Shown piece after piece: positions 3,131-64,000 of a stretch of 64,000 nt of DNA. The DNA is taken from the IMG/VR virus record IMGVR_UViG_3300046787_000129, positions 45,630 through 109,629 of that record. The stretch is one strand, 5' to 3'. The position numbers and the translations under genes were made by a program. This DNA is from a virus. Below the pieces are notes generated by a model. It did no database searches and had not been told where the DNA came from. It worked only from the letters and a program-made list of their open reading frames with translations. Every line of letters begins with the position of its first letter. Positions within the stretch are counted from its first letter, which is position 1.

Positions 3131-3170
3131 AGCCGCTCACCTAGTTTTTCTAGGTGGGCGGTTTTGTTTT
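3131..3170 (+). terminator. Intrinsic terminator
   Basis: AGCCGCTCACCTAG-ttttt-CTAGGTGGGCGGTT followed by TTGTTTT. Confidence 0.85.
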
Positions 3171-3186
3171 ACTGTACAATAGAGTG

Positions 3187-3897
3187 ATGGCTACTCAAAT
3201 ATACAAAAGCGGAACCGTGACCACACTAGATGGTCAGAGGCTATATCTAACGCCATTAAAGATAAAGTACCTTAGACAGTTCATGACCGCATATGCAGAA
3301 GTTGGCAAAGCCGAGGGGCAGATAGAAGTTCTTTCAGCACTAGCAGAATGTGCACTGATATCAATGCAACAATATTGCCCAGATATAAGAACCCTAGAAG
3401 ACCTAGAGGACAGAATTAATCTCCCAACCATATACAAGATCATAAACATAGCAGGAGGAGTAAGTGCTGATCCAAATGAGCCAGTAGATACTTCTGAGGC
3501 AAATGATGGAAAATCAGACGAAGCAAAGGGTTCATCTTGGGATGAGTTAGATTTAGCAAAGCTAGAAGCCGAGGTATTTTTGCTGGGCATATGGAAAGAC
3601 TATGAAGAGCTAGAAACCTCGCTATCTATGCCAGAACTAGTAGCAACACTGGAGTCAAAGAGAGAGATAGACTATCAGGAAAAGAAGTTCCTGGCAGCTA
3701 TTCAGGGTGTAGACTTGGATGAGAGCACTGGCCAGAAAGATGCTAACCCTCAAAGCAAGTGGGAAGAGATGAAGGCTAGAGTGTTTAGTGGTGGAGCTGC
3801 CACTAACTCAAATGACATAGTTTCCCTGCAGGGGCCTAGTGCTCAAAAGGCAGGGTTTGGAATAGGCATGGGCCTAGACTACGTAAAACTGGGATAA
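3187..3897 (+). CDS. Tail assembly chaperone, long (GT-like) form, leaderless
   Basis: ATG 3187 lies 6 nt after TACAAT; N-terminal half paralogous to next gene; C-terminal WKDYEELETSLSMPEL T-like domain. Confidence 0.7.
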   Translation: MATQIYKSGTVTTLDGQRLYLTPLKIKYLRQFMTAYAEVGKAEGQIEVLSALAECALISMQQYCPDIRTLEDLEDRINLPTIYKIINIAGGVSADPNEPVDTSEANDGKSDEAKGSSWDELDLAKLEAEVFLLGIWKDYEELETSLSMPELVATLESKREIDYQEKKFLAAIQGVDLDESTGQKDANPQSKWEEMKARVFSGGAATNSNDIVSLQGPSAQKAGFGIGMGLDYVKLG

Positions 3898-43756: not shown

Positions 43757-43916
43757 CTATAGGCTAATCACCTATACGCATGAGGAAGTTGTTAAATTTC
43801 TCGGTTCTAAGTGACTTTATACTTAGCGTGTAGGTAATCTCACGATATAGGTTCGGGGCTGGTCACCTGTCTTACGGAACGACTCAGGGATATAGATCTG
43901 ATTAATCTGATATCCC
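43757..43916 (+). ncRNA. Unassigned structured RNA
   Basis: ACCTATACGC/GCGTGTAGGT stem enclosing two hairpins; GGGATAT/ATATCCC hairpin; no credible ORF. Confidence 0.45.
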
Positions 43917-43920
43917 ACCT

Positions 43921-43987
43921 GGATAGATGGTGTAATGGCAACACAGCATTGATCAGCAAGTTGGGAGTTCGACTCTCCCTCTGTCCA
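43921..43987 (+). ncRNA. tRNA-like RNA with truncated anticodon arm
   Basis: GGATAGA/TCTGTCC acceptor, GTGT/ACAC D stem, GGGAG-TTCGACT-CTCCC T arm; only 18 nt between D and T arms. Confidence 0.75.
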
Positions 43988-56991: not shown

Positions 56992-57626
56992 TTTGGATTG
57001 ATCCAGATTTGATCCTGGATGCCTTCGCCCCACTGGTACTGAACATCACATAGCAAGAACCCAGAGTTAATCATAAAGTTAATAATGTGATTGTTTGTCT
57101 TGTGTTGGTGGTGGCGATAGAATGTCTCGGTTTCTAAATGAAATAGTTTTACATTCTTAATGTATTCCCCAAGGCCTTCCAAGAATTCGTGGGTATATCC
57201 TTCAATATCAACCTTAACAACATCAATGATCGTATCAGACAGACCGTTGTCCCTAATAAAGGTGTCCATTCTGGTTACAGGAACCTCTATGGTATTATAC
57301 TCAGCGTCCTTGAAGAACGAGTAGTTCTCTATTGAAGAAGATCCAGCATGATCCTTGTCCTCAGAAACTATCTGAATAAACTTAGTTGTTCCGTCATAGT
57401 TTGATATGGCTGTCTCAAAGACATTAAAGTTAGGATACTTAGCCTTTGCGTCTATGACAGCTAATGGGTTTGCATCAATGGCATAAACGTTTTCTGCAGA
57501 TAGGTGTTCACGTAAGAACTCTGCATCGTCACCATCTCTGGTACCAACATCAATAATAGTATTAGCAGTATCTCCAAAGTACTTCTTGTACTTCTCTACT
57601 ACTGGTTCCATCCATACATTTTCCAT
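56973..57626 (-). CDS. FkbM-family methyltransferase
   Basis: IIDVGTRDG, AIDANP, AISNYDG, TRMD, KVDIEG. Confidence 0.9.
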   Translation of the reverse strand: MENVWMEPVVEKYKKYFGDTANTIIDVGTRDGDDAEFLREHLSAENVYAIDANPLAVIDAKAKYPNFNVFETAISNYDGTTKFIQIVSEDKDHAGSSSIENYSFFKDAEYNTIEVPVTRMDTFIRDNGLSDTIIDVVKVDIEGYTHEFLEGLGEYIKNVKLFHLETETFYRHHQHKTNNHIINFMINSGFLLCDVQYQWGEGIQDQIWINPNYIVSY

Positions 57627-57639
57627 TTATTCTCCTTTG

Positions 57640-57713
57640 TCCCCCCAGTTGGAATCGAACCAACGACCTTAGAATTAGAAGTTCTCTGCTCTAGTCCCCT
57701 GAGCTATGGAGGG
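57640..57713 (-). tRNA. tRNA-Arg(TCT)
   Basis: CCCTCCA/TGGGGGG; loop CTTCTAA; TTCGATT. Confidence 0.9.
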
Positions 57714-57718
57714 TTGTG

Positions 57719-57804
57719 TCGGGCAAGTGGGGATCGAACCCACGATGTTTCTTATGTGTCAGATTTTAAGTCTGATGCGTTTCAACCAGCTTCGCCATTA
57801 CCCG
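57719..57804 (-). tRNA. tRNA-Leu(TAA)
   Basis: CGGGTAA/TTGCCCG; TCAGA-CTTAAAA-TCTGA; long variable region. Confidence 0.9.
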
Positions 57805-57826
57805 TTATCAATATTTAATTATATAG

Positions 57827-57903
57827 TCTTCCAGCTGGGGATCGAACCCAGATGTCACCAATTACTCTTTCTACACCTTATAAGAGTGAGGAGATACTGG
57901 AAG
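57827..57903 (-). ncRNA. Rearranged tRNA-like RNA with UAU anticodon-like loop
   Basis: CTTCCAG/CTGGAAG acceptor and CTGGG-TTCGATC-CCCAG T arm perfect; no D arm in normal position; CACT-CTTATAA-GGTG arm followed by AATTGGT. Confidence 0.75.
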
Positions 57904-57908
57904 TAAAG

Positions 57909-57982
57909 TAGGGTGTGTGGGATTTGAACCCACGACCGTCTCGTTATGAGCGAGTTGCGCTAACCAGCTGCGCCAACACCCC
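57909..57982 (-). tRNA. tRNA-CAT (elongator Met or lysidine Ile2)
   Basis: GGGGTGT/ACACCCT; CTCG-CTCATAA-CGAG. Confidence 0.88.
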
Positions 57983-57988
57983 ATACAT

Positions 57989-58687
57989 CTATAGACCAGC
58001 TATAAATGCATTTACTGTCTTAGGAAACGCTGTCTCCGTAAGACTCTGGACTGCCTTAGCATAGTCCTGGATCTCGACCTGGGCGTCATGGCCTAGGCGT
58101 TGCTCTAGAAATGTGATAGCACCCTGTAGCGAGGTAGTCCAACGCCAACGAACATACATACCATAGGCAGGTAGGAATAGACGTGCCAACTCTGGGGCAA
58201 CGTTATCTTCCATAGCCTCGTGGTAAAGCTTTACGCCATCAATGATAGACTCACGAAGCTTGTTAGTATAGTGAGCACCATTACTAAAATGAATAGGCTC
58301 TCCGCTGCCCTGTTTGCTATTCTCTGGCTTACTACGCCAAGCAGATGCGCTAGGGATATAGAACTCTTCGTCCTCCGTGATATAGCGACGTGATGACTCA
58401 TTCCAGCCATTCTGATCATCTACATGTGTAGAACCTACAGCATACTTCCACCACTGACGTGCTACGAAGAGTGGTGCATAGACCTCAAACGTGAGCGCAG
58501 CGTGACGAAATGGTGACGTGTGACCCTCACGGATGAGGAAGTCAATGAGTTTTGCATCTCTGGCGGTAAACTCAGTAGACTCCTTATCGTACGATACACG
58601 TGCAGCATTGACAATAGATAGGTCAGTGCCAAGAGTGTCAACAAGACGTACATATCCCTTATCCAATACATTAATCTTCGATTCCAT
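57989..58687 (-). CDS. thyX: Flavin-dependent thymidylate synthase
   Basis: IVNAARVSY, HTSPF, ARQW, NESSRRY, ELARLFLP, HDAQVEI. Confidence 0.95.
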   Translation of the reverse strand: MESKINVLDKGYVRLVDTLGTDLSIVNAARVSYDKESTEFTARDAKLIDFLIREGHTSPFRHAALTFEVYAPLFVARQWWKYAVGSTHVDDQNGWNESSRRYITEDEEFYIPSASAWRSKPENSKQGSGEPIHFSNGAHYTNKLRESIIDGVKLYHEAMEDNVAPELARLFLPAYGMYVRWRWTTSLQGAITFLEQRLGHDAQVEIQDYAKAVQSLTETAFPKTVNAFIAGL

Positions 58688-58830
58688 ATGTTTCCTTAAT
58701 AGTTTTAATAGCGGTAGAGTTTACTTCTGCATCTAGGCCAAGTAATTCTACAATATCTTTTGCCCTATCCCTTGCGGCATAACGCTTAAAGTCTTCTAAC
58801 AGTGCACGAGACATTGTTAGTTGTTCTGAA

Positions 58831-59133
58831 TCATGACTTACTGACAAGGTCTTTTACCTCTGGGTATTCAAGATACTCTTGAACATCATCAATATTAGCT
58901 TTCATATCTCTGCCGATCTGAGCCCATAGGTCAAGCATTTGATTCCAAACACCTTCTGGTACAAATGTGGTCCATGCATCATTCATAAAGATCATTGGCT
59001 GGCCTTCAGTTGGCTTAAGGGTATATCCCCACTTAGCACCATCCTCATCTTCATAGGTGCGGAATAGTAATCCCTGTGGGTCTGGTCGTAGACCAATGCC
59101 ACGTAGCTGTCCTGGCTGTGGTTGTCCTGTCAT
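58831..59133 (-). CDS. Hypothetical protein
   Basis: 100 aa, coupled start. Confidence 0.55.
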   Translation of the reverse strand: MTGQPQPGQLRGIGLRPDPQGLLFRTYEDEDGAKWGYTLKPTEGQPMIFMNDAWTTFVPEGVWNQMLDLWAQIGRDMKANIDDVQEYLEYPEVKDLVSKS

Positions 59134-59285
59134 TAGTATTCCTTTTCTGCATGGGTAACACCATGCTTATCATCAATGTACTTATGAATCTTTCTTAATG
59201 CCTTAGCCTTAGAGATTCCAAGACCTACTACTAAAAAGATTCCATTCCAAAAGAATTCTGCAATGATATGGTCAAGACCAAACAT
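59133..59285 (-). CDS. Small membrane protein (start uncertain)
   Basis: One TM followed by KIHKYIDDKHG. Confidence 0.5.
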   Translation of the reverse strand: MFGLDHIIAEFFWNGIFLVVGLGISKAKALRKIHKYIDDKHGVTHAEKEY

Positions 59286-59304
59286 TACTTCAAGAATTTC
59301 TTCA

Positions 59305-59733
59305 CTACTGGACAATTGCAACCACACTTTCAATACATTCGTTTACGATTCGGTGCCATGTAATGGCAGGTAGCCATGCAACATTAGAAGTAATGCCACG
59401 GCCTGAGTGCTTGTACCAAGAGATTTCAATACCAGTTTTCTTGTGTACAAAGTTTGGAGGGCAGTCTGGATCATGCCCAATGCGATTTCCATCACACCAG
59501 CAGTAACTGCACATAGCAAATACGCTATTGTCATAACCCTCTTCACCATCATTGGCTGTTAGTAAAGGTCCGTTACTATGCTTGCCCGATGGATAACCAC
59601 GATGCTCTCGGATTATCTCCGCTATGGCGTCTAGCCCAGCAGTAGCCCAGTCAGCCTCATGCTCATATGTAGGACCATTAGTCAGTACAATCTGACCAAT
59701 CTCAGTGTATGCTGGTCCGTGTTTTGATAGCAT
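59305..59733 (-). CDS. Hypothetical protein
   Basis: SD GGGAG; YCWC...CPPNF...ISWYKH. Confidence 0.6.
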   Translation of the reverse strand: MLSKHGPAYTEIGQIVLTNGPTYEHEADWATAGLDAIAEIIREHRGYPSGKHSNGPLLTANDGEEGYDNSVFAMCSYCWCDGNRIGHDPDCPPNFVHKKTGIEISWYKHSGRGITSNVAWLPAITWHRIVNECIESVVAIVQ

Positions 59734-59852
59734 CAATAGTCTCCCTAATCTTTGCTTTCAATTTTGGTTTAGTAAAGTAGTTCCAGCTATTTAGGAACCA
59801 GTGTTTGTAGATATGCAAGGGATACTTAATCATCCCTTCACGCTTCTTGTGC

Positions 59853-60143
59853 TTAGCCAATTACGGCAAAGATATCACGATATGGAAGAATGACAAGGTC
59901 CTTGCCATCATGCTTAATCTCAGTGCCAGAGTACTTGGAATAGATAACCTTGTCGCCTACTGCAACATCCATACTCATCTTAGTGCCATCTGCAAAGGTT
60001 GCTCCTGCACCAACTGCAATAACAATGCCCTCGGTTGGCTTCTCTTCTGCTGAACCTGCAATGATAAGGCCTGATGAAGTTACCTTCTCAGTCTCAACAA
60101 TAGGCTCGATAACAATCTTATCTTCTAGTGGCTTCAAACTCAT
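59853..60143 (-). CDS. groES: Co-chaperonin GroES
   Basis: LKPLEDKIVI, SGLII, EKPTEG.VIAVG, VGDKVIYSKYSGTEI. Confidence 0.95.
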   Translation of the reverse strand: MSLKPLEDKIVIEPIVETEKVTSSGLIIAGSAEEKPTEGIVIAVGAGATFADGTKMSMDVAVGDKVIYSKYSGTEIKHDGKDLVILPYRDIFAVIG

Positions 60144-60352
60144 TTGTGCTCCTTAATTAACTGAATCGCTCTTTCGATTCCATCTGAATAATCAATGTTA
60201 CCATTGCGCAACTCTTTTTGCAATACCTTTACGAAAACTTTTTTAGCTTCTGTTAGAGCAGCGTCTGCTCCAACCTCGTAGCCACTATTCCAACCATCGT
60301 TAAATAGAGCTTCGATCTTTTGTTCACGTCTCTTCTTTATCCTGTTTATCAT
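60140..60352 (-). CDS. Hypothetical protein
   Basis: ATG 60352 after AAGGAGAG; longer ORF-track start overlaps tRNA-Gln. Confidence 0.55.
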   Translation of the reverse strand: MINRIKKRREQKIEALFNDGWNSGYEVGADAALTEAKKVFVKVLQKELRNGNIDYSDGIERAIQLIKEHK

Positions 60353-60364
60353 TATCTCTCCTTG

Positions 60365-60436
60365 CTCTCCCCCAAGGACTCGAACCTCGATAGCCAGGAC
60401 CAAAACCTGGAGTCTTGCCAATTAGACGAAGGGAGA
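60365..60436 (-). tRNA. tRNA-Gln(TTG)
   Basis: TCTCCCT/GGGGAGA; CCAGG-TTTTGGT-CCTGG. Confidence 0.92.
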
Positions 60437-60464
60437 ATGCGGCAAAGCAGATCATTACTTTACC

Positions 60465-60556
60465 TAGTTACAGTGGGATTCGAACCCACGCCTCCCCTAG
60501 TCATCTGCTGCATACAGTTTATAGACTATGGCGTACTGCCCCTATACTATGTAACT
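60465..60556 (-). ncRNA. tRNA-like RNA with expanded anticodon domain
   Basis: AGTTACA/TGTAACT acceptor, GTAT/GTAC D stem, GTGGG-TTCGAAT-CCCAC T arm; 43 nt between D and T arms without a canonical 7-nt loop. Confidence 0.72.
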
Positions 60557-60558
60557 TG

Positions 60559-60635
60559 TGGCATGTCAGGGAATCGAACCCTTCTAACCTATGGTACAGG
60601 ATTTACAGTCCCGTGTCTGTCCCAGCAGCCATGCC
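60559..60635 (-). tRNA. tRNA-Tyr(GTA), non-canonical core
   Basis: CGGGA-CTGTAAA-TCCTG; ACC-ATA-GGT variable arm; short D arm; mismatches at acceptor/T junction. Confidence 0.7.
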
Positions 60636-60746
60636 TTGTGCACCTTAGCCTAACCCAGATAGGTGCCACATCTGTAATAGTTTTTACTAGTATTACTATT
60701 AAGGAGTCATAATGCTTTCGCAACATAGGACTATTCCTGGTGTTCG

Positions 60747-60817
60747 CACCACCTCAAGGAGTCGAACCTTGGCTCTCAGTTTTGGAGACTGATGTGCTAC
60801 CGTAACACTTAGGTGAT
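60747..60817 (-). tRNA. tRNA-Trp(CCA)
   Basis: ATCACCT/AGGTGGT; TCAGT-CTCCAAA-ACTGA; G73. Confidence 0.92.
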
Positions 60818-60822
60818 ATGTG

Positions 60823-60894
60823 TGACCCCACGGAGAATTGAACTCCGATTGCCAGGTTGAAAACCTGGAGTCCTAACCATTAAACGATGGGGCC
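60823..60894 (-). tRNA. tRNA-Glu(TTC)
   Basis: GGCCCCA/TGGGGTC; CCAGG-TTTTCAA-CCTGG. Confidence 0.92.
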
Positions 60895-60900
60895 GAAAGA

Positions 60901-61038
60901 CTATTTTAGCAGAGACTTTAGCTTTTCGCAATAGCAATTTGAAGATTCATTTAGATCCATAAGGTCTTTGTAGATATACCAGGGTATTTGATACCAGGCA
61001 CCGCAAGGGCAATTATAATACATAGGTTGTTTTGCCAT
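60901..61038 (-). CDS. Small Cys-rich protein (45 aa, leaderless, not in ORF track)
   Basis: TATAAT 5 nt before ATG; CPCG...CYC. Confidence 0.55.
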   Translation of the reverse strand: MAKQPMYYNCPCGAWYQIPWYIYKDLMDLNESSNCYCEKLKSLLK

Positions 61039-61071
61039 ACTCAATTATACTACTTATGATAGAATTGTTAT

Positions 61072-61293
61072 ATGAATAATTGTCCAAACTGTAATCACGA
61101 CCTCGTGAACATAATTTATGGTATGCCCTCACAGAAGGCTATCGATCTTGCAAGACAAGAAGACATTGCTTTAGGGGGTTGCCTCTATGAGCCAGACCTT
61201 CCTACCCACTACTGCTATGGATGCCATGAGGCATATCCAACCATAGAGGACAAGGGTAACTATGAAGAAGTTTTGCCACTCTTCGCTGAGTGA
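61072..61293 (+). CDS. Zinc-ribbon protein, leaderless
   Basis: CPNC...IIYGMP...LGGC...CYGC; TAGAAT 6 nt before ATG. Confidence 0.7.
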   Translation: MNNCPNCNHDLVNIIYGMPSQKAIDLARQEDIALGGCLYEPDLPTHYCYGCHEAYPTIEDKGNYEEVLPLFAE

Positions 61294-62250: not shown

Positions 62251-62505
62251 ATGGCACAGCTACTCAAGGCAAACAAGCCTACGAGTCTTACCTGTATGCA
62301 CAACCTAGACTACGAGATGGACTGGGATGGCGATGAGTATCTATATAAAGTAGATCTGGATAAGCGTTACATTGACCACCTCGAACGATCGGGGTATCGT
62401 ATGCACAGGCTGGTACCAGAAATCCTAGTATGGAATAAGTCACTAGACTTCCAAACTATATATATTGCACGTGCAGAAGACTTTGATGAAGTGGAGATGT
62501 TTTAA
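62251..62505 (+). CDS. Hypothetical protein
   Basis: ATG 62251; coupled to next gene. Confidence 0.5.
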   Translation: MAQLLKANKPTSLTCMHNLDYEMDWDGDEYLYKVDLDKRYIDHLERSGYRMHRLVPEILVWNKSLDFQTIYIARAEDFDEVEMF

Positions 62506-62990
62506 TGACTGTATTCTTAATTAGCGATACTCACTTTGGCCACGCTAATATTGTTAAGTATGCAGAGCGTCCATTCGATACCGTTGAAGAAATGAACGAG
62601 GTAATGGTTGATAACTGGAATAGTGTTGTTAAGCAAGGTGACAAGGTATATCACCTTGGAGATGTCACTATGAACTCTAAGTCATTAGATATCCTATCAC
62701 GACTAAATGGTCGTAAGGTATTGATCAAAGGCAACCACGATATTCAGAAGCTAAAGTTTTATACTCCACACTTCTACGATATTCGTGGTAGTCACGAACT
62801 AGATAACTTTATCTTAACTCACATTCCTGTTAGCGATACCCAGAAGTTGCGGTATAGGGGAAACATTCACGGACACACTCACGAGAAGAACCTACAAGAT
62901 CCTTGGTACTTTAACGTAAGTGTAGAACAAATCAATTACACACCAACAGCATTTGATGAAATAATTAAGGATATACGATGGAACAAATAA
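62505..62990 (+). CDS. Calcineurin-like metallophosphoesterase
   Basis: SDTHFGH, HLGD, GNHD, THIP, HGHTH. Confidence 0.92.
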   Translation: MTVFLISDTHFGHANIVKYAERPFDTVEEMNEVMVDNWNSVVKQGDKVYHLGDVTMNSKSLDILSRLNGRKVLIKGNHDIQKLKFYTPHFYDIRGSHELDNFILTHIPVSDTQKLRYRGNIHGHTHEKNLQDPWYFNVSVEQINYTPTAFDEIIKDIRWNK

Positions 62991-64000
62991 CCAATAAACT
63001 ATTTAACTGGGCATCTATTCTAGATGAGAAAACACTTGAGCAGGCTAAGACTACTTCGTCAATGCCGTTCATTTTCCCACACCTAGCACTGATGCCAGAT
63101 GCACACCTTGGTAAGGGGTCTACTGTTGGGTCAGTAATTCCTACACAGGGAGCCATTATGCCTGCTGCAATTGGGGTAGACATTGGCTGTGGAATGATGG
63201 CTATTAAGACTAACAAGAATGTACACGACATAGAGGGTGTAAACCTTAAGGAATTGCGTGAGTCAATTGAGTCTGCTATTCCACTATCAGCTTTTAAGCA
63301 TAATCAGACAGTTAAGCCAGATGCACTTGATGCAGCAGAGGAACTGCTTGACGCTGCCCTAGACGCTGGGTTTAATCCATCAGACTATGCGAGTAACTGG
63401 ACGCACCAGCTTGGATCTCTTGGTTCTGGCAATCACTTTATTGAGATTACAGTGGATGAGGAAAACTCTATCTGGCTATTCTTGCACTCAGGCTCTCGTG
63501 GAATTGGTAACAAGATTGCTACACATCACATTGCTGTTGCACAGGAATATGCAAAGAAGAACTTCATTACCCTGGTAGATCCAGACCTAGCGTACCTTGT
63601 AGAAGGCACTGTAGAGTTCGATCGCTACATCGCTGAGATGACTTGGGCACAAAAGTTTGCTTTTAAGAATCGTGAAGTAATGATGAGTCGTGTCAAGAAG
63701 GCATTTAAGCATCACGTTGGTGATTTCGAAATCATTGAAGAGATTAACTGTCACCACAACTTTACTCAGCCTGAGAATCATTGGGGCAAGAATCTGTGGA
63801 TAACTCGTAAGGGTGCTATCTCTGCTAATGAAGGACAGATGGGTCTTATTCCAGGTTCAATGGGTACTGCATCGTATGTAGTTGAAGGACTTGGTAATAA
63901 GCTTTCGTTCTGCACTGCACCACATGGTGCTGGGCGTGAATACTCTCGTAATGAAGCACGAAAGGTCTTTACAAAAGAGTCCTTAGATGATATGATGAGA
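62978..64000 (+). CDS. rtcB: RtcB RNA ligase (3' truncated by window, absent from ORF track)
   Basis: Translated by hand: MEQITNKL...LMPDAHLGKG...GVDIGCGM...LGSLGSGNHFIE...HSGSRGIG...CHHN...RKGA...IPGSMG...APHGAGR. Confidence 0.96.
   Translation, partial: MEQITNKLFNWASILDEKTLEQAKTTSSMPFIFPHLALMPDAHLGKGSTVGSVIPTQGAIMPAAIGVDIGCGMMAIKTNKNVHDIEGVNLKELRESIESAIPLSAFKHNQTVKPDALDAAEELLDAALDAGFNPSDYASNWTHQLGSLGSGNHFIEITVDEENSIWLFLHSGSRGIGNKIATHHIAVAQEYAKKNFITLVDPDLAYLVEGTVEFDRYIAEMTWAQKFAFKNREVMMSRVKKAFKHHVGDFEIIEEINCHHNFTQPENHWGKNLWITRKGAISANEGQMGLIPGSMGTASYVVEGLGNKLSFCTAPHGAGREYSRNEARKVFTKESLDDMMR

Follow-up and report, generated by a model that had tools for sequence, protein, structure and literature searches.

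A conserved family of phage tRNA-like genes with part of the D arm encoded behind the anticodon arm

Results and Discussion

A tRNA array with an uncalled gene

The window analyzed here is a 64,000-nt stretch of DNA, to which all coordinates refer, from the 109.6-kb genome (42.9% GC) of a tailed phage that encodes a 2387-aa tape measure protein, PolA, RNR, and ThyX. The phage is not crAss-like, although the first blastn match of the gene described below was to a crAss-like virus. An array of tRNA genes is bracketed by thyX and an FkbM-type methyltransferase gene, and it appears to lie within a minus-strand unit between these two genes. A scan for promoters and terminators found nothing that exceeded shuffled sequences. 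The genome also encodes RtcB (345 bits) adjoining a metallophosphoesterase gene, 5 kb from the gene described below. A nearby tRNA (60465-60556) has an insertion in its anticodon region.

Within the array, and flanked on both sides by tRNAs that ARAGORN calls, is a 77-nt gene on the minus strand (57903-57827; Table 1) for which ARAGORN makes no call. A model that saw only the letters and a list of open reading frames (the sequence-only reading) had described it as a rearranged tRNA, of tRNA-like length and set between ordinary tRNAs, that tRNA finders were expected to miss or to call as a pseudogene. Its reading of the gene is exact, letter for letter, and these claims held. The fully paired acceptor stem and perfect T arm that it described are both present, and there is, as claimed, no D arm ahead of the anticodon arm, as only UCUCC separates A9 from the anticodon stem. 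The anticodon, UAU, is at 57882-57880.

Table 1. Features of the rewired gene and of the neighboring tRNA genes in the window
Feature	Position	Strand	Remarks
tRNA(CAU), canonical, upstream	57908..57982	-	5-nt spacer; ARAGORN; Rfam tRNA 65.6 bits
Acceptor stem 5' strand CUUCCAG (positions 1-7)	57897..57903	-	7/7 pairs with 57828-57834
U8 A9 connector	57895..57896	-	invariant in 79/79
UCUCC, equivalent to canonical 22-26 (U22, D-stem strand C23 U24 C25, C26)	57890..57894	-	57891-57893 pair with 57865-57867
Anticodon arm: U.U closing mismatch, CACU/GGUG (4 Watson-Crick/GU pairs), loop CUUAUAA	57873..57889	-	
AGAAA linker (N44 G45 A A A)	57868..57872	-	variable-loop-like; between anticodon arm and transposed D segment
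GAG, equivalent to canonical 10-12 (second D-stem strand)	57865..57867	-	3' of anticodon arm; covaries with 57891-57893
UAAUUGGUGA, D-loop equivalent: U13 A14 A15 U16 U17 G18 G19 U20 N A21	57855..57864	-	
CAU connector leading into T stem	57852..57854	-	same in 79/79, but demanded by search patterns and regex
T arm CUGGG UUCGAUC CCCAG	57835..57851	-	5/5 pairs
Acceptor stem 3' strand CUGGAAG (57834-57828) and discriminator A73 (57827)	57827..57834	-	
tRNA-Leu(UAA), canonical	57718..57804	-	22 nt downstream of rewired gene; ARAGORN; Rfam tRNA
tRNA-Leu(UAA) and tRNA-Arg(UCU), downstream	57639..57804	-	ARAGORN; Rfam tRNA 56.1 and 60.6 bits

The Rfam tRNA model (RF00005) has no minus-strand match at the gene at E<=10, and a permissive Rfam scan of 57400-61200 assigned it no family, mimic families included, on its own strand. 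The only Rfam match at the gene is weak, on the plus strand, and to a plastid model resembling an antisense tRNA. Held against RF00005, the gene has the acceptor stem, the T arm, and an anticodon loop with U33 and a purine at position 37. It lacks the D hairpin between positions 9 and 26, and it fails on family score and finder call.

A family that crosses phage groups

Blastn against GenBank phages returned one homolog, in Kehishuvirus 'tikkala' (Crassvirales; host Bacteroides cellulosilyticus), where it falls in a 90-nt stretch of a tRNA array that bears no annotation (OQ198717.1:95577-95653). Relative to the window gene, its acceptor and anticodon stems have compensating changes, and its anticodon is GAU instead of UAU. 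We scanned IMG/VR for the invariant 15-mer and variants of it, with helix variants chosen on the 3' triplet alone. The layout that defines the family is acc(7) UA N-NNN-C [5-7-5 anticodon arm] N GAAA NNN UAAUUGGUNR CAU T arm acc(7) A, the two NNN triplets being complementary. Viral contigs ranging from a few kb to >400 kb yielded 116 instances and 79 distinct sequences, all in one gap-free 77-nt layout. The window sequence meets every element of the definition and is row 1 of the 79-sequence alignment.

Further GenBank carriers are cr130_1, bajarodcaudo virus 1, and a 462-kb uncultured phage. Overall, the hosts of the family include a crAss-like virus, the window's 110-kb tailed phage, and contigs of 200-400 kb. 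The family crosses major phage groups, given that the window's phage, unlike tikkala, is not crAss-like. ARAGORN calls none of the 79 sequences in isolation and three of the 116 instances in native context, each time with the 5' end displaced. None of the three annotated GenBank phage records with the gene marks it, and the fourth record, LR756500, is without any annotation. If these genes are working tRNAs, phage tRNA repertoires would thus be systematically incomplete through a blind spot of the tRNA finders, as would analyses of codon supply.

Members keep the company of tRNA genes: for 87 of the 116, ARAGORN calls a tRNA no more than 300 nt away, in every case in the same orientation, and the median spacing is 7 nt. 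Their anticodons are UAU (62 of the 79 distinct sequences), GAU (10), CAU (6), and UAC (1). The anticodon loop follows the pattern C U N A U A N, in which U33, A35, U36, and A37 are conserved and position 34 is U, G, or C. The U.U closing position of the anticodon stem is also conserved across the family.

A motif search of 185,579 species-representative bacterial and archaeal genomes matched 46 contigs. Thirteen of these are true members, all in metagenome-assembled bins, and several adjoin other tRNA genes. No true member was found in an isolate bacterial genome in this set, nor did the scan find evidence for a cellular gene. All three matches in isolates (Clostridium sp. N3C, Chitinophaga niastensis, and Collinsella aerofaciens), like the many Collinsella matches, have neither acceptor nor T arms and arise by chance or from coding sequence.

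Covariation supports four helices

The structure tested on the 79 distinct sequences consists of the acceptor stem, columns 11-13 paired with columns 37-39 (hereafter the D-like helix), the anticodon stem, and the T stem. Overall, 97.1% of cells are paired, versus 64.4% in column shuffles (0 of 500 reach the observed value), and the covariation score is 0.843, versus 0.208 for shuffles and 0.12-0.17 for slid registers. Double-sided changes occur at 18 of 19 pairs (14.5 in column shuffles, none of which reaches 18 in 500). By helix, they are found at 7/7 pairs of the acceptor stem, 4/4 pairs of the anticodon stem (97.5% of cells paired), and 4/5 pairs of the T stem (98.7% of cells paired), whose loop fits UUCRANY. 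RNAalifold, given the alignment as its sole input, predicts the same four helices. It also offers an invariant 2-bp UG/CA mini-helix that would make different use of G18.

The sequence-only reading had proposed that CUC before the anticodon arm pairs with GAG after it in place of the D stem. Across the 79 sequences, this D-like helix has 100% of its cells paired and shows compensatory changes at 3/3 pairs. The 5' pentamer was left unconstrained while variants were selected by their 3' triplet, and the 5' strand compensates in every 3'-triplet variant. The combinations are UCUCC/GAG (52 instances), UCCCC/GGG (49), UCGCC/GCG (4), UCACC/GUG (4), UCUCC/GGG (3, with a U.G intermediate), UCUGC/CAG (2), and one instance each of ACGUC/GCG, UAUCC/GAU, and UUCCC/GGA, the last in a metagenome bin.

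These data bear on whether the gene is merely a decaying tRNA pseudogene or a chance resemblance, a reading to which we give essentially no credence. In its favor, the gene is missed by tRNA finders, and the folding-energy z-score of the window sequence is only -1.2. Against it, 79 distinct sequences show compensation in each of the helices and keep their loops invariant (much of this invariance being demanded by the search), and the family occurs in very different phages. The covariation refutes it, and the earlier claim that the gene is not a product of simple decay is upheld by 116 copies (79 distinct) in which all four helices covary.

Single-sequence energies tell a different story from the alignment. 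For the window RNA, the covariation-supported fold has an energy of -16.5 kcal/mol, versus -20.9 for the minimum free energy (MFE) fold, and the D-like helix is present in only 4 of the 79 MFE structures. The D-like helix probably needs tertiary contacts or modifications, because single-sequence energies disfavor it. We rejected the window RNA's MFE fold, which is built on ACUCUU/AAGAGU and UC.CC/GG.GA helices, as the family alignment does not support it. Its pair 11-48 is broken in 67 of 79 sequences, its helix 17-22/35-40 is 71.7% paired with three pairs mostly broken, and its helix 10-14/45-49 shows no double changes.

The transposed D segment

In canonical numbering, the RNA runs 1-7, U8 A9, U22 C23 U24 C25 C26, 27-43 (with U27.U43), and N44 G A A A, followed by G10 A11 G12 U13 A14 A15 U16 U17 G18 G19 U20 N A21, C A U48, 49-65, 66-72, and A73. 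This order places a 13-nt segment equivalent to canonical 10-21 in the variable region, a reading that a direct in-silico test supports. When the segment is un-transposed in silico (columns 37-49 put before columns 10-14), ARAGORN calls all 79 sequences, versus none in their natural order. The calls are Ile-UAU (62, including the window gene), Ile-GAU (10), CAU (6), and Val-UAC (1). With the segment deleted, or pasted back in a wrong order, ARAGORN calls none of the 79.

We propose that the segment with one D-stem strand and the D loop (A14, R15, G18, G19, and A21) is transposed behind the anticodon arm. The two D-stem strands would then flank this arm, C23 U24 C25 on its 5' side and G10 A11 G12 on its 3' side, and the D stem could stack on the anticodon stem as usual. 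The chain would be joined anew at three places: from 9 to 22, from 43 via NGAAA to 10, and from 21 via CAU to 49. Inferred from established tRNA structure, each of these connections would link residues that are close together in a normal L-shaped tRNA, those from 9 to 22 and from 21 to 49 at the elbow-side end of the D stem and that from 43 to 10 at its anticodon-side end. Because the new connections join L-shape neighbors, the displaced D loop should still be able to reach the T loop.

The residues for U8-A14, A15-U48, and G18G19 with U55C56 are all present. We infer that U8 is the canonical partner of A14, that the U of the CAU connector is a candidate 48 partner for A15 (a Levitt pair) and so has a tertiary role, and that the GG docks on the T loop. 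The linker may take part in base triples, and its GAAA bulge may take over the groove-filling role of residues 9, 45, and 46. Covariation cannot speak to these tertiary contacts (U8-A14, A15-U48, G18G19/T loop, and GAAA triples), because the bases involved are invariant. Nor is their constancy independent evidence, as A14, A15, G18, G19, and U48 were fixed by the search patterns. The displaced AAUUGGU noted in the sequence-only reading does match A14 R15 Y16 Y17 G18 G19, but its invariance (79/79) was demanded by the search. Likewise, UAAUUGGU is the same in 79/79 and fits the canonical D-loop consensus, and both the search patterns and the collecting regex demanded it. The linker GAAA is identical in 79/79, but it too was demanded by the regex, so this is not proof of conservation; the first base of the linker varies (A 53, U 22, C 3, and G 1). 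A73 is invariant in 79/79.

If borne out, a conserved, widespread class that keeps every core nucleotide while joining the strands differently would mean that more than one topology can give the L-shape. Nature would thereby have provided an experiment on which features of the tRNA core are really required by synthetases, RNase P, the CCA enzyme, EF-Tu, modification enzymes, and the ribosome.

Comparison with known tRNAs and tRNA-like RNAs

A canonical tRNA-Ile(UAU) (RF00005; the allele of the nearest relative, L239) shares with the rewired gene a 7-bp acceptor stem, A73, a 5-bp T stem with a UUCRANY loop, the anticodon loop CUUAUAA on a near-identical stem, and the genomic slot and neighbors. 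Also shared are the D-loop consensus A14 R15 Y Y G18 G19 .. A21 and a G10-C25-type pair. The two differ in that the rewired gene has segment 10-21 behind the anticodon arm and a D stem that encloses this arm, and its secondary structure is a three-way junction instead of a four-way cloverleaf. The rewired RNA works like a class I elongator tRNA, insofar as charging and decoding can be inferred, yet is not a canonical member; we do not file it as one because it fails the cloverleaf order and the RF00005 score.

D-armless mitochondrial tRNAs are known, for example metazoan mt-tRNA-Ser(AGY) and Ascaris mt-tRNA-Ser(UCU) (PMC7609411). Like the rewired family, these have no hairpin between the acceptor and anticodon stems and form a three-way junction. 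However, the D stem and GG motif are gone from these shortened, flexible molecules, whereas the rewired RNAs retain both parts, relocated, at the normal length of 77 nt. A D-armless mitochondrial-type identity is ruled out by the covarying 3-bp D-like helix, UAAUUGGU, and the 77-nt length.

Circularly permuted and split tRNA genes occur in Cyanidioschyzon merolae and Nanoarchaeum. Permuted genes are rearranged at the acceptor termini, and their processing yields a normal cloverleaf. These genes resemble the rewired gene in the non-canonical order of their tRNA segments. The rewired gene, in contrast, has normal termini and a changed internal order, presumably in the mature RNA as well. It is not circularly permuted, as the acceptor strands are at its two ends and 7/7 paired. 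A related possibility, that a precursor is cut and rejoined at the RNA level into normal cloverleaf order, could draw on the RtcB ligase encoded 5 kb away and on the nearby tRNA with the anticodon-region insertion. We regard it as highly improbable: a 13-nt piece would have to be cut twice and ligated twice, no bulge-helix-bulge or other recognizable splice motif is seen, and the acceptor ends are already terminal. Moreover, the D-like helix covaries in the encoded order, and relatives with the same neighboring genes have a canonical allele.

The allo-tRNAs have 8/4 or 9/3 acceptor/T branches (PMC5389517). Along with tRNA-Sec and tRNA-Pyl, they share with the rewired family unusual arm dimensions, discovery in metagenomes or phages, and a tendency to be missed by standard finders. 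All three keep the cloverleaf arm order, whereas the rewired family changes it, and this rules out an allo-tRNA identity. Among tRNA-like mimics are the bacterial Y-RNA-like YrlA, viral 3' tRNA-like structures, and mascRNA. Like the rewired gene, they combine acceptor- and T-arm-like modules with a rearranged remainder. We know of no mimic that has a constrained sense anticodon loop or that is an allele of a real tRNA gene in a tRNA array. Identity with a known mimic is ruled out, as no Rfam mimic family matches and the sense anticodon is constrained.

To our knowledge, the cloverleaf arm order is treated as universal for cytoplasmic-type tRNAs, and the exceptions of which we are aware have arms that are shortened, lost, or changed in length, or genes that are permuted with the normal RNA restored. 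We found no description of the rewired layout in the full-text literature searched, including a 2020 review of non-canonical tRNAs, although this absence is not proof of novelty.

Rewired tRNAs with other anticodons

A finder that un-transposes acceptor-plus-T-arm candidates missed by ARAGORN recovered the main family. At phage loci reached via other family members, it also identified 12 distinct rewired tRNAs with unrelated core sequences. These are predicted to be Arg-UCU (loci L158, L160, L168, L182, and L183), Arg-ACG (L143), Arg-UCG (L168), Ile-GAU (L132, L137, which has the main core with a one-base variant, and L215), and Ile-UAU (L136 and L168). In the shuffled-interior control, ARAGORN made no call among 2409 rearranged test sequences. 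Together with the 116 instances and the excess of paired cells over shuffles, this puts the architecture far beyond chance. Given rewired tRNAs with unrelated cores and silent shuffled controls, the layout is, as far as predicted identities can tell, a scaffold serving several isoacceptors. Rewired tRNAs could supply compact orthogonal scaffolds for genetic-code engineering.

A canonical tRNA-Ile(UAU) in the same slot of relatives

We gathered 80 relatives of the window's phage via ThyX (75-98% identity). In the nearest, L239 (ThyX 98% identical), the slot of the window gene is occupied by a canonical tRNA-Ile(UAU) (L239:3782-3856). The four closest relatives (L239-L242) have the order tRNA(CAU), canonical tRNA-Ile(UAU), tRNA-Leu(UAA), and tRNA-Arg(UCU), and the same flanking sequences bracket their canonical Ile gene and the rewired gene of the window. 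With an ordinary tRNA-Ile(UAU) in the slot of its closest relative, the rewired gene behaves like an allelic form of an ordinary AUA-decoding gene. This allelic replacement is the most telling functional evidence.

Among the 80 relatives, 27 have the canonical Ile(UAU) gene, six have the rewired gene, and none has both. About two co-occurrences would be expected, so the exclusivity is not statistically significant; the distribution is consistent with equivalence of the two forms. The sequence-only reading had stated that UAU tRNAs are rare, which is not the case in this lineage. It had also named a normal D arm in related phages as grounds for refutation. Such an arm does occur at the locus, but only in a different, non-homologous allele, and the finding stands.

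The canonical alleles of L239-L242 have anticodon arms nearly identical to that of the window gene, but their acceptor and T stems differ from it throughout. We therefore infer that the slot was replaced as a cassette, and reject an origin by in-situ rearrangement in the window's lineage. Across the lineage more broadly, acceptor stems are alike, with NCUCCAG (L260) and CUUCCAG (the window) in rewired genes and GCUCCAG (L299) in a canonical one.

Codon demand provides additional context. AUA is used 381 times in 87 long ORFs, which is 21% of Ile codons and 14.2 per 1000 codons, and no other tRNA-Ile was found in the 109.6-kb genome. The other tRNAs of the genome mostly have U34 anticodons for A-ending codons (UCU, UAA, UUG, UUC, UGU, and UCC). 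Two have CAU, and their identity (Met or lysidine-Ile2) is unresolved, so AUA decoding might be redundant.

Function of the rewired gene

What is observed is a real and conserved gene with four helices, a constrained anticodon, and a place in a co-oriented tRNA array, in the Ile(UAU) slot. Taken together, the anticodon loop, the genomic context, the allelic replacement, and the demand for AUA decoding make a tRNA-Ile(UAU) that reads AUA during infection the best explanation. We consider it likely that the gene is such a working tRNA, with processing, charging, and decoding inferred. It would be a functional elongator tRNA-Ile, processed by RNase P and CCA addition, charged by the host IleRS, and used by the ribosome, all of which we infer, as we do an L-shape with contact between G18G19 and the T loop. 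The AUA-decoder suggestion of the sequence-only reading is thus favored, with anticodons limited to UAU, GAU, CAU, and a single UAC and an ordinary tRNA-Ile(UAU) in the slot of relatives.

Alternatively, the RNA could act outside translation, as a mimic or decoy that draws a tRNA-targeting host enzyme (such as an anticodon nuclease, TilS, or some other modifier) into binding or cutting it. Retention of the acceptor, T, and anticodon arms would then serve to spare real tRNAs or to titrate the enzyme. The non-canonical invariant core (GAAA, UAAUUGGU, and CAU) resembles a specific binding surface, although this is weak support, as these motifs were demanded by the search, and RtcB beside a metallophosphoesterase in the genome suggests pressure from tRNA cleavage. 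We think this role unlikely. A decoy has no need of one-box sense anticodons, A37, A73, or a freely covarying acceptor stem, and the gene fills the ordinary tRNA-Ile(UAU) slot of relatives, with a co-occurrence of zero (not significant). In addition, Arg and Val anticodons on the same layout in other phages fit a general decoding scaffold better.

The RNA might instead be a tRNA of changed identity, charged by another synthetase so that AUA is recoded, or used for non-ribosomal aminoacyl transfer. The E. coli IleRS identity elements C29-G41 and U12-A23 are absent from the family, and their relevance to the host is unclear. The absence of some E. coli elements from the D stem and anticodon stem, and six members with CAU that are ambiguous between Met and Ile2, leave some room for this explanation. 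Nevertheless, we judge it very unlikely: A35, U36, A37, and A73 are retained, the lineage's acceptor stem resembles those of canonical Ile(UAU) alleles in relatives, and long ORFs are normal under the standard code.

If the gene is a working AUA-reading tRNA-Ile, its rewired core may have an adaptive role. We raise, only as a tentative and rather doubtful suggestion, that it is an escape device, which leaves the Ile decoder (and the Arg and Val decoders of other phages) usable by the synthetase and ribosome but hidden from, or resistant to, an enzyme that recognizes the canonical core of D arm and variable loop. That enzyme could be a host defense nuclease that cleaves tRNAs, or one of phage origin that degrades the tRNAs of the host. 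If true, this would explain the spread of one invariant scaffold over unrelated phage groups beside tRNA-repair genes (RtcB), and it would be a new move in the conflict between phages and hosts over tRNAs.

The 3' end of the gene has one further feature. CCA is not encoded in the window gene, and the base that follows the discriminator is C. The same base is found at this position in all twelve of the commonest family contexts listed, and in the three neighboring tRNAs of the window.

Rewired tRNAs with other cores

Rewired tRNAs, in which the D segment lies 3' of the anticodon arm, also occur with differing core sequences, and these carry anticodons for Arg (UCU, ACG, UCG) or Ile (GAU, UAU). 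ARAGORN recognises each of them only with the D segment returned to its usual place. One phage contig (L168) encodes four rewired genes. For one sequence of the rewired 77-nt family, ARAGORN reports an 87-nt 'tRNA-Ile(tat)' in the native context, at three loci, by borrowing 9 upstream bases; therefore, some 'class II Ile' calls for phages in databases may be mis-modelled rewired tRNAs.

An unannotated gene of Kehishuvirus 'tikkala', flanked by tRNA-Lys and tRNA-Phe, looks like this rewiring in class II (long-variable-arm) form, the variable arm holding the D segment. Pairing is possible between ACAUC, 5' of the anticodon arm, and GAUGU, 3' of it; AAUGGAC follows GAUGU, and this segment is enclosed by CUCC and GGAG. 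An identical sequence was found at a second locus (L021).

Coordinates of tRNA, tRNA-like and associated features (L-numbers, retrieved loci)
Feature	Location	Strand	Basis
Rewired tRNA, differing core	L143:634-709
Rewired tRNA, differing core	L158:8491-8565
Rewired tRNA, differing core	L160:2867-2941
Rewired tRNAs, differing cores	L168:2248-2327, 2524-2602, 3144-3223
Rewired tRNA, differing core	L182:2534-2608
Rewired tRNA, differing core	L183:4159-4238
Rewired tRNA, differing core	L132:2248-2324
Rewired tRNA, differing core	L136:3193-3274
Rewired tRNA, differing core	L215:4553-4629
87-nt call on rewired gene	L122:1328-1414; L144:1822-1908; L173:2567-2653		ARAGORN
95-nt tRNA-like gene, 'tikkala'	L001:2058-2152 = OQ198717.1:96140-96234	+	Anticodon loop CUGUAAA (Tyr)
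tRNA-like gene, GUA (Tyr)	window 60561-60641	-	Weak tRNA-Sec match
70-nt tRNA-like gene, GUA	L108:3307-3376	-	Perfect acceptor stem
tRNA with anticodon-region insertion	window 60465-60556	-	Rfam tRNA, 46.1 bits
Hairpin and tRNA-like body	window 43888-43987	+	Acceptor stem, D arm, T arm
Short tRNA-Leu(UAA)	L239:3874-3948
Metallophosphoesterase and RtcB RNA ligase	window 62505-64000	+	Pfam Metallophos_2; RtcB, 345 bits

Other unusual tRNA-like genes

Two tRNA-like genes with the anticodon loop CUGUAAA were not called by ARAGORN. The window gene, whose sole match (tRNA-Sec, 28.5 bits) is under threshold, is probably an unusual tRNA-Tyr; its D arm is very short, and its variable stem is short. The 70-nt gene, with an atypical D region, adjoins two rewired Ile genes on one contig and was found also at L056 and L086.

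In another window tRNA, the acceptor stem, D arm and T arm are normal and a 34-nt insertion spans the anticodon region. ARAGORN reads its 'anticodon' either as two bases (at) or as Gln(CUG), in the latter case with an intron of 20 nt. Relatives (L240 and L299-L301) encode the same insertion-bearing tRNA.

Between tRNA-Gly and tRNA-Asp, an 11-bp hairpin with loop CUGAUUA directly precedes a tRNA-like body (43921-43987) consisting of an acceptor (GGAUAGA/UCUGUCC), D arm (GUGU..ACAC), T arm (GGGAG..CUCCC) and a 17-nt anticodon region in which no stem is possible.

Array neighbors

In L239 and relatives L240-L242, the tRNA-Leu(UAA) adjoining the Ile slot measures only ~75 nt, without the long variable arm; in the same place, the window encodes a normal 87-nt class II form. 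A metallophosphoesterase gene overlaps the start of RtcB, which extends past the end of the window. The two genes, a candidate pair for tRNA repair, lie some 5 kb away from the tRNA array.
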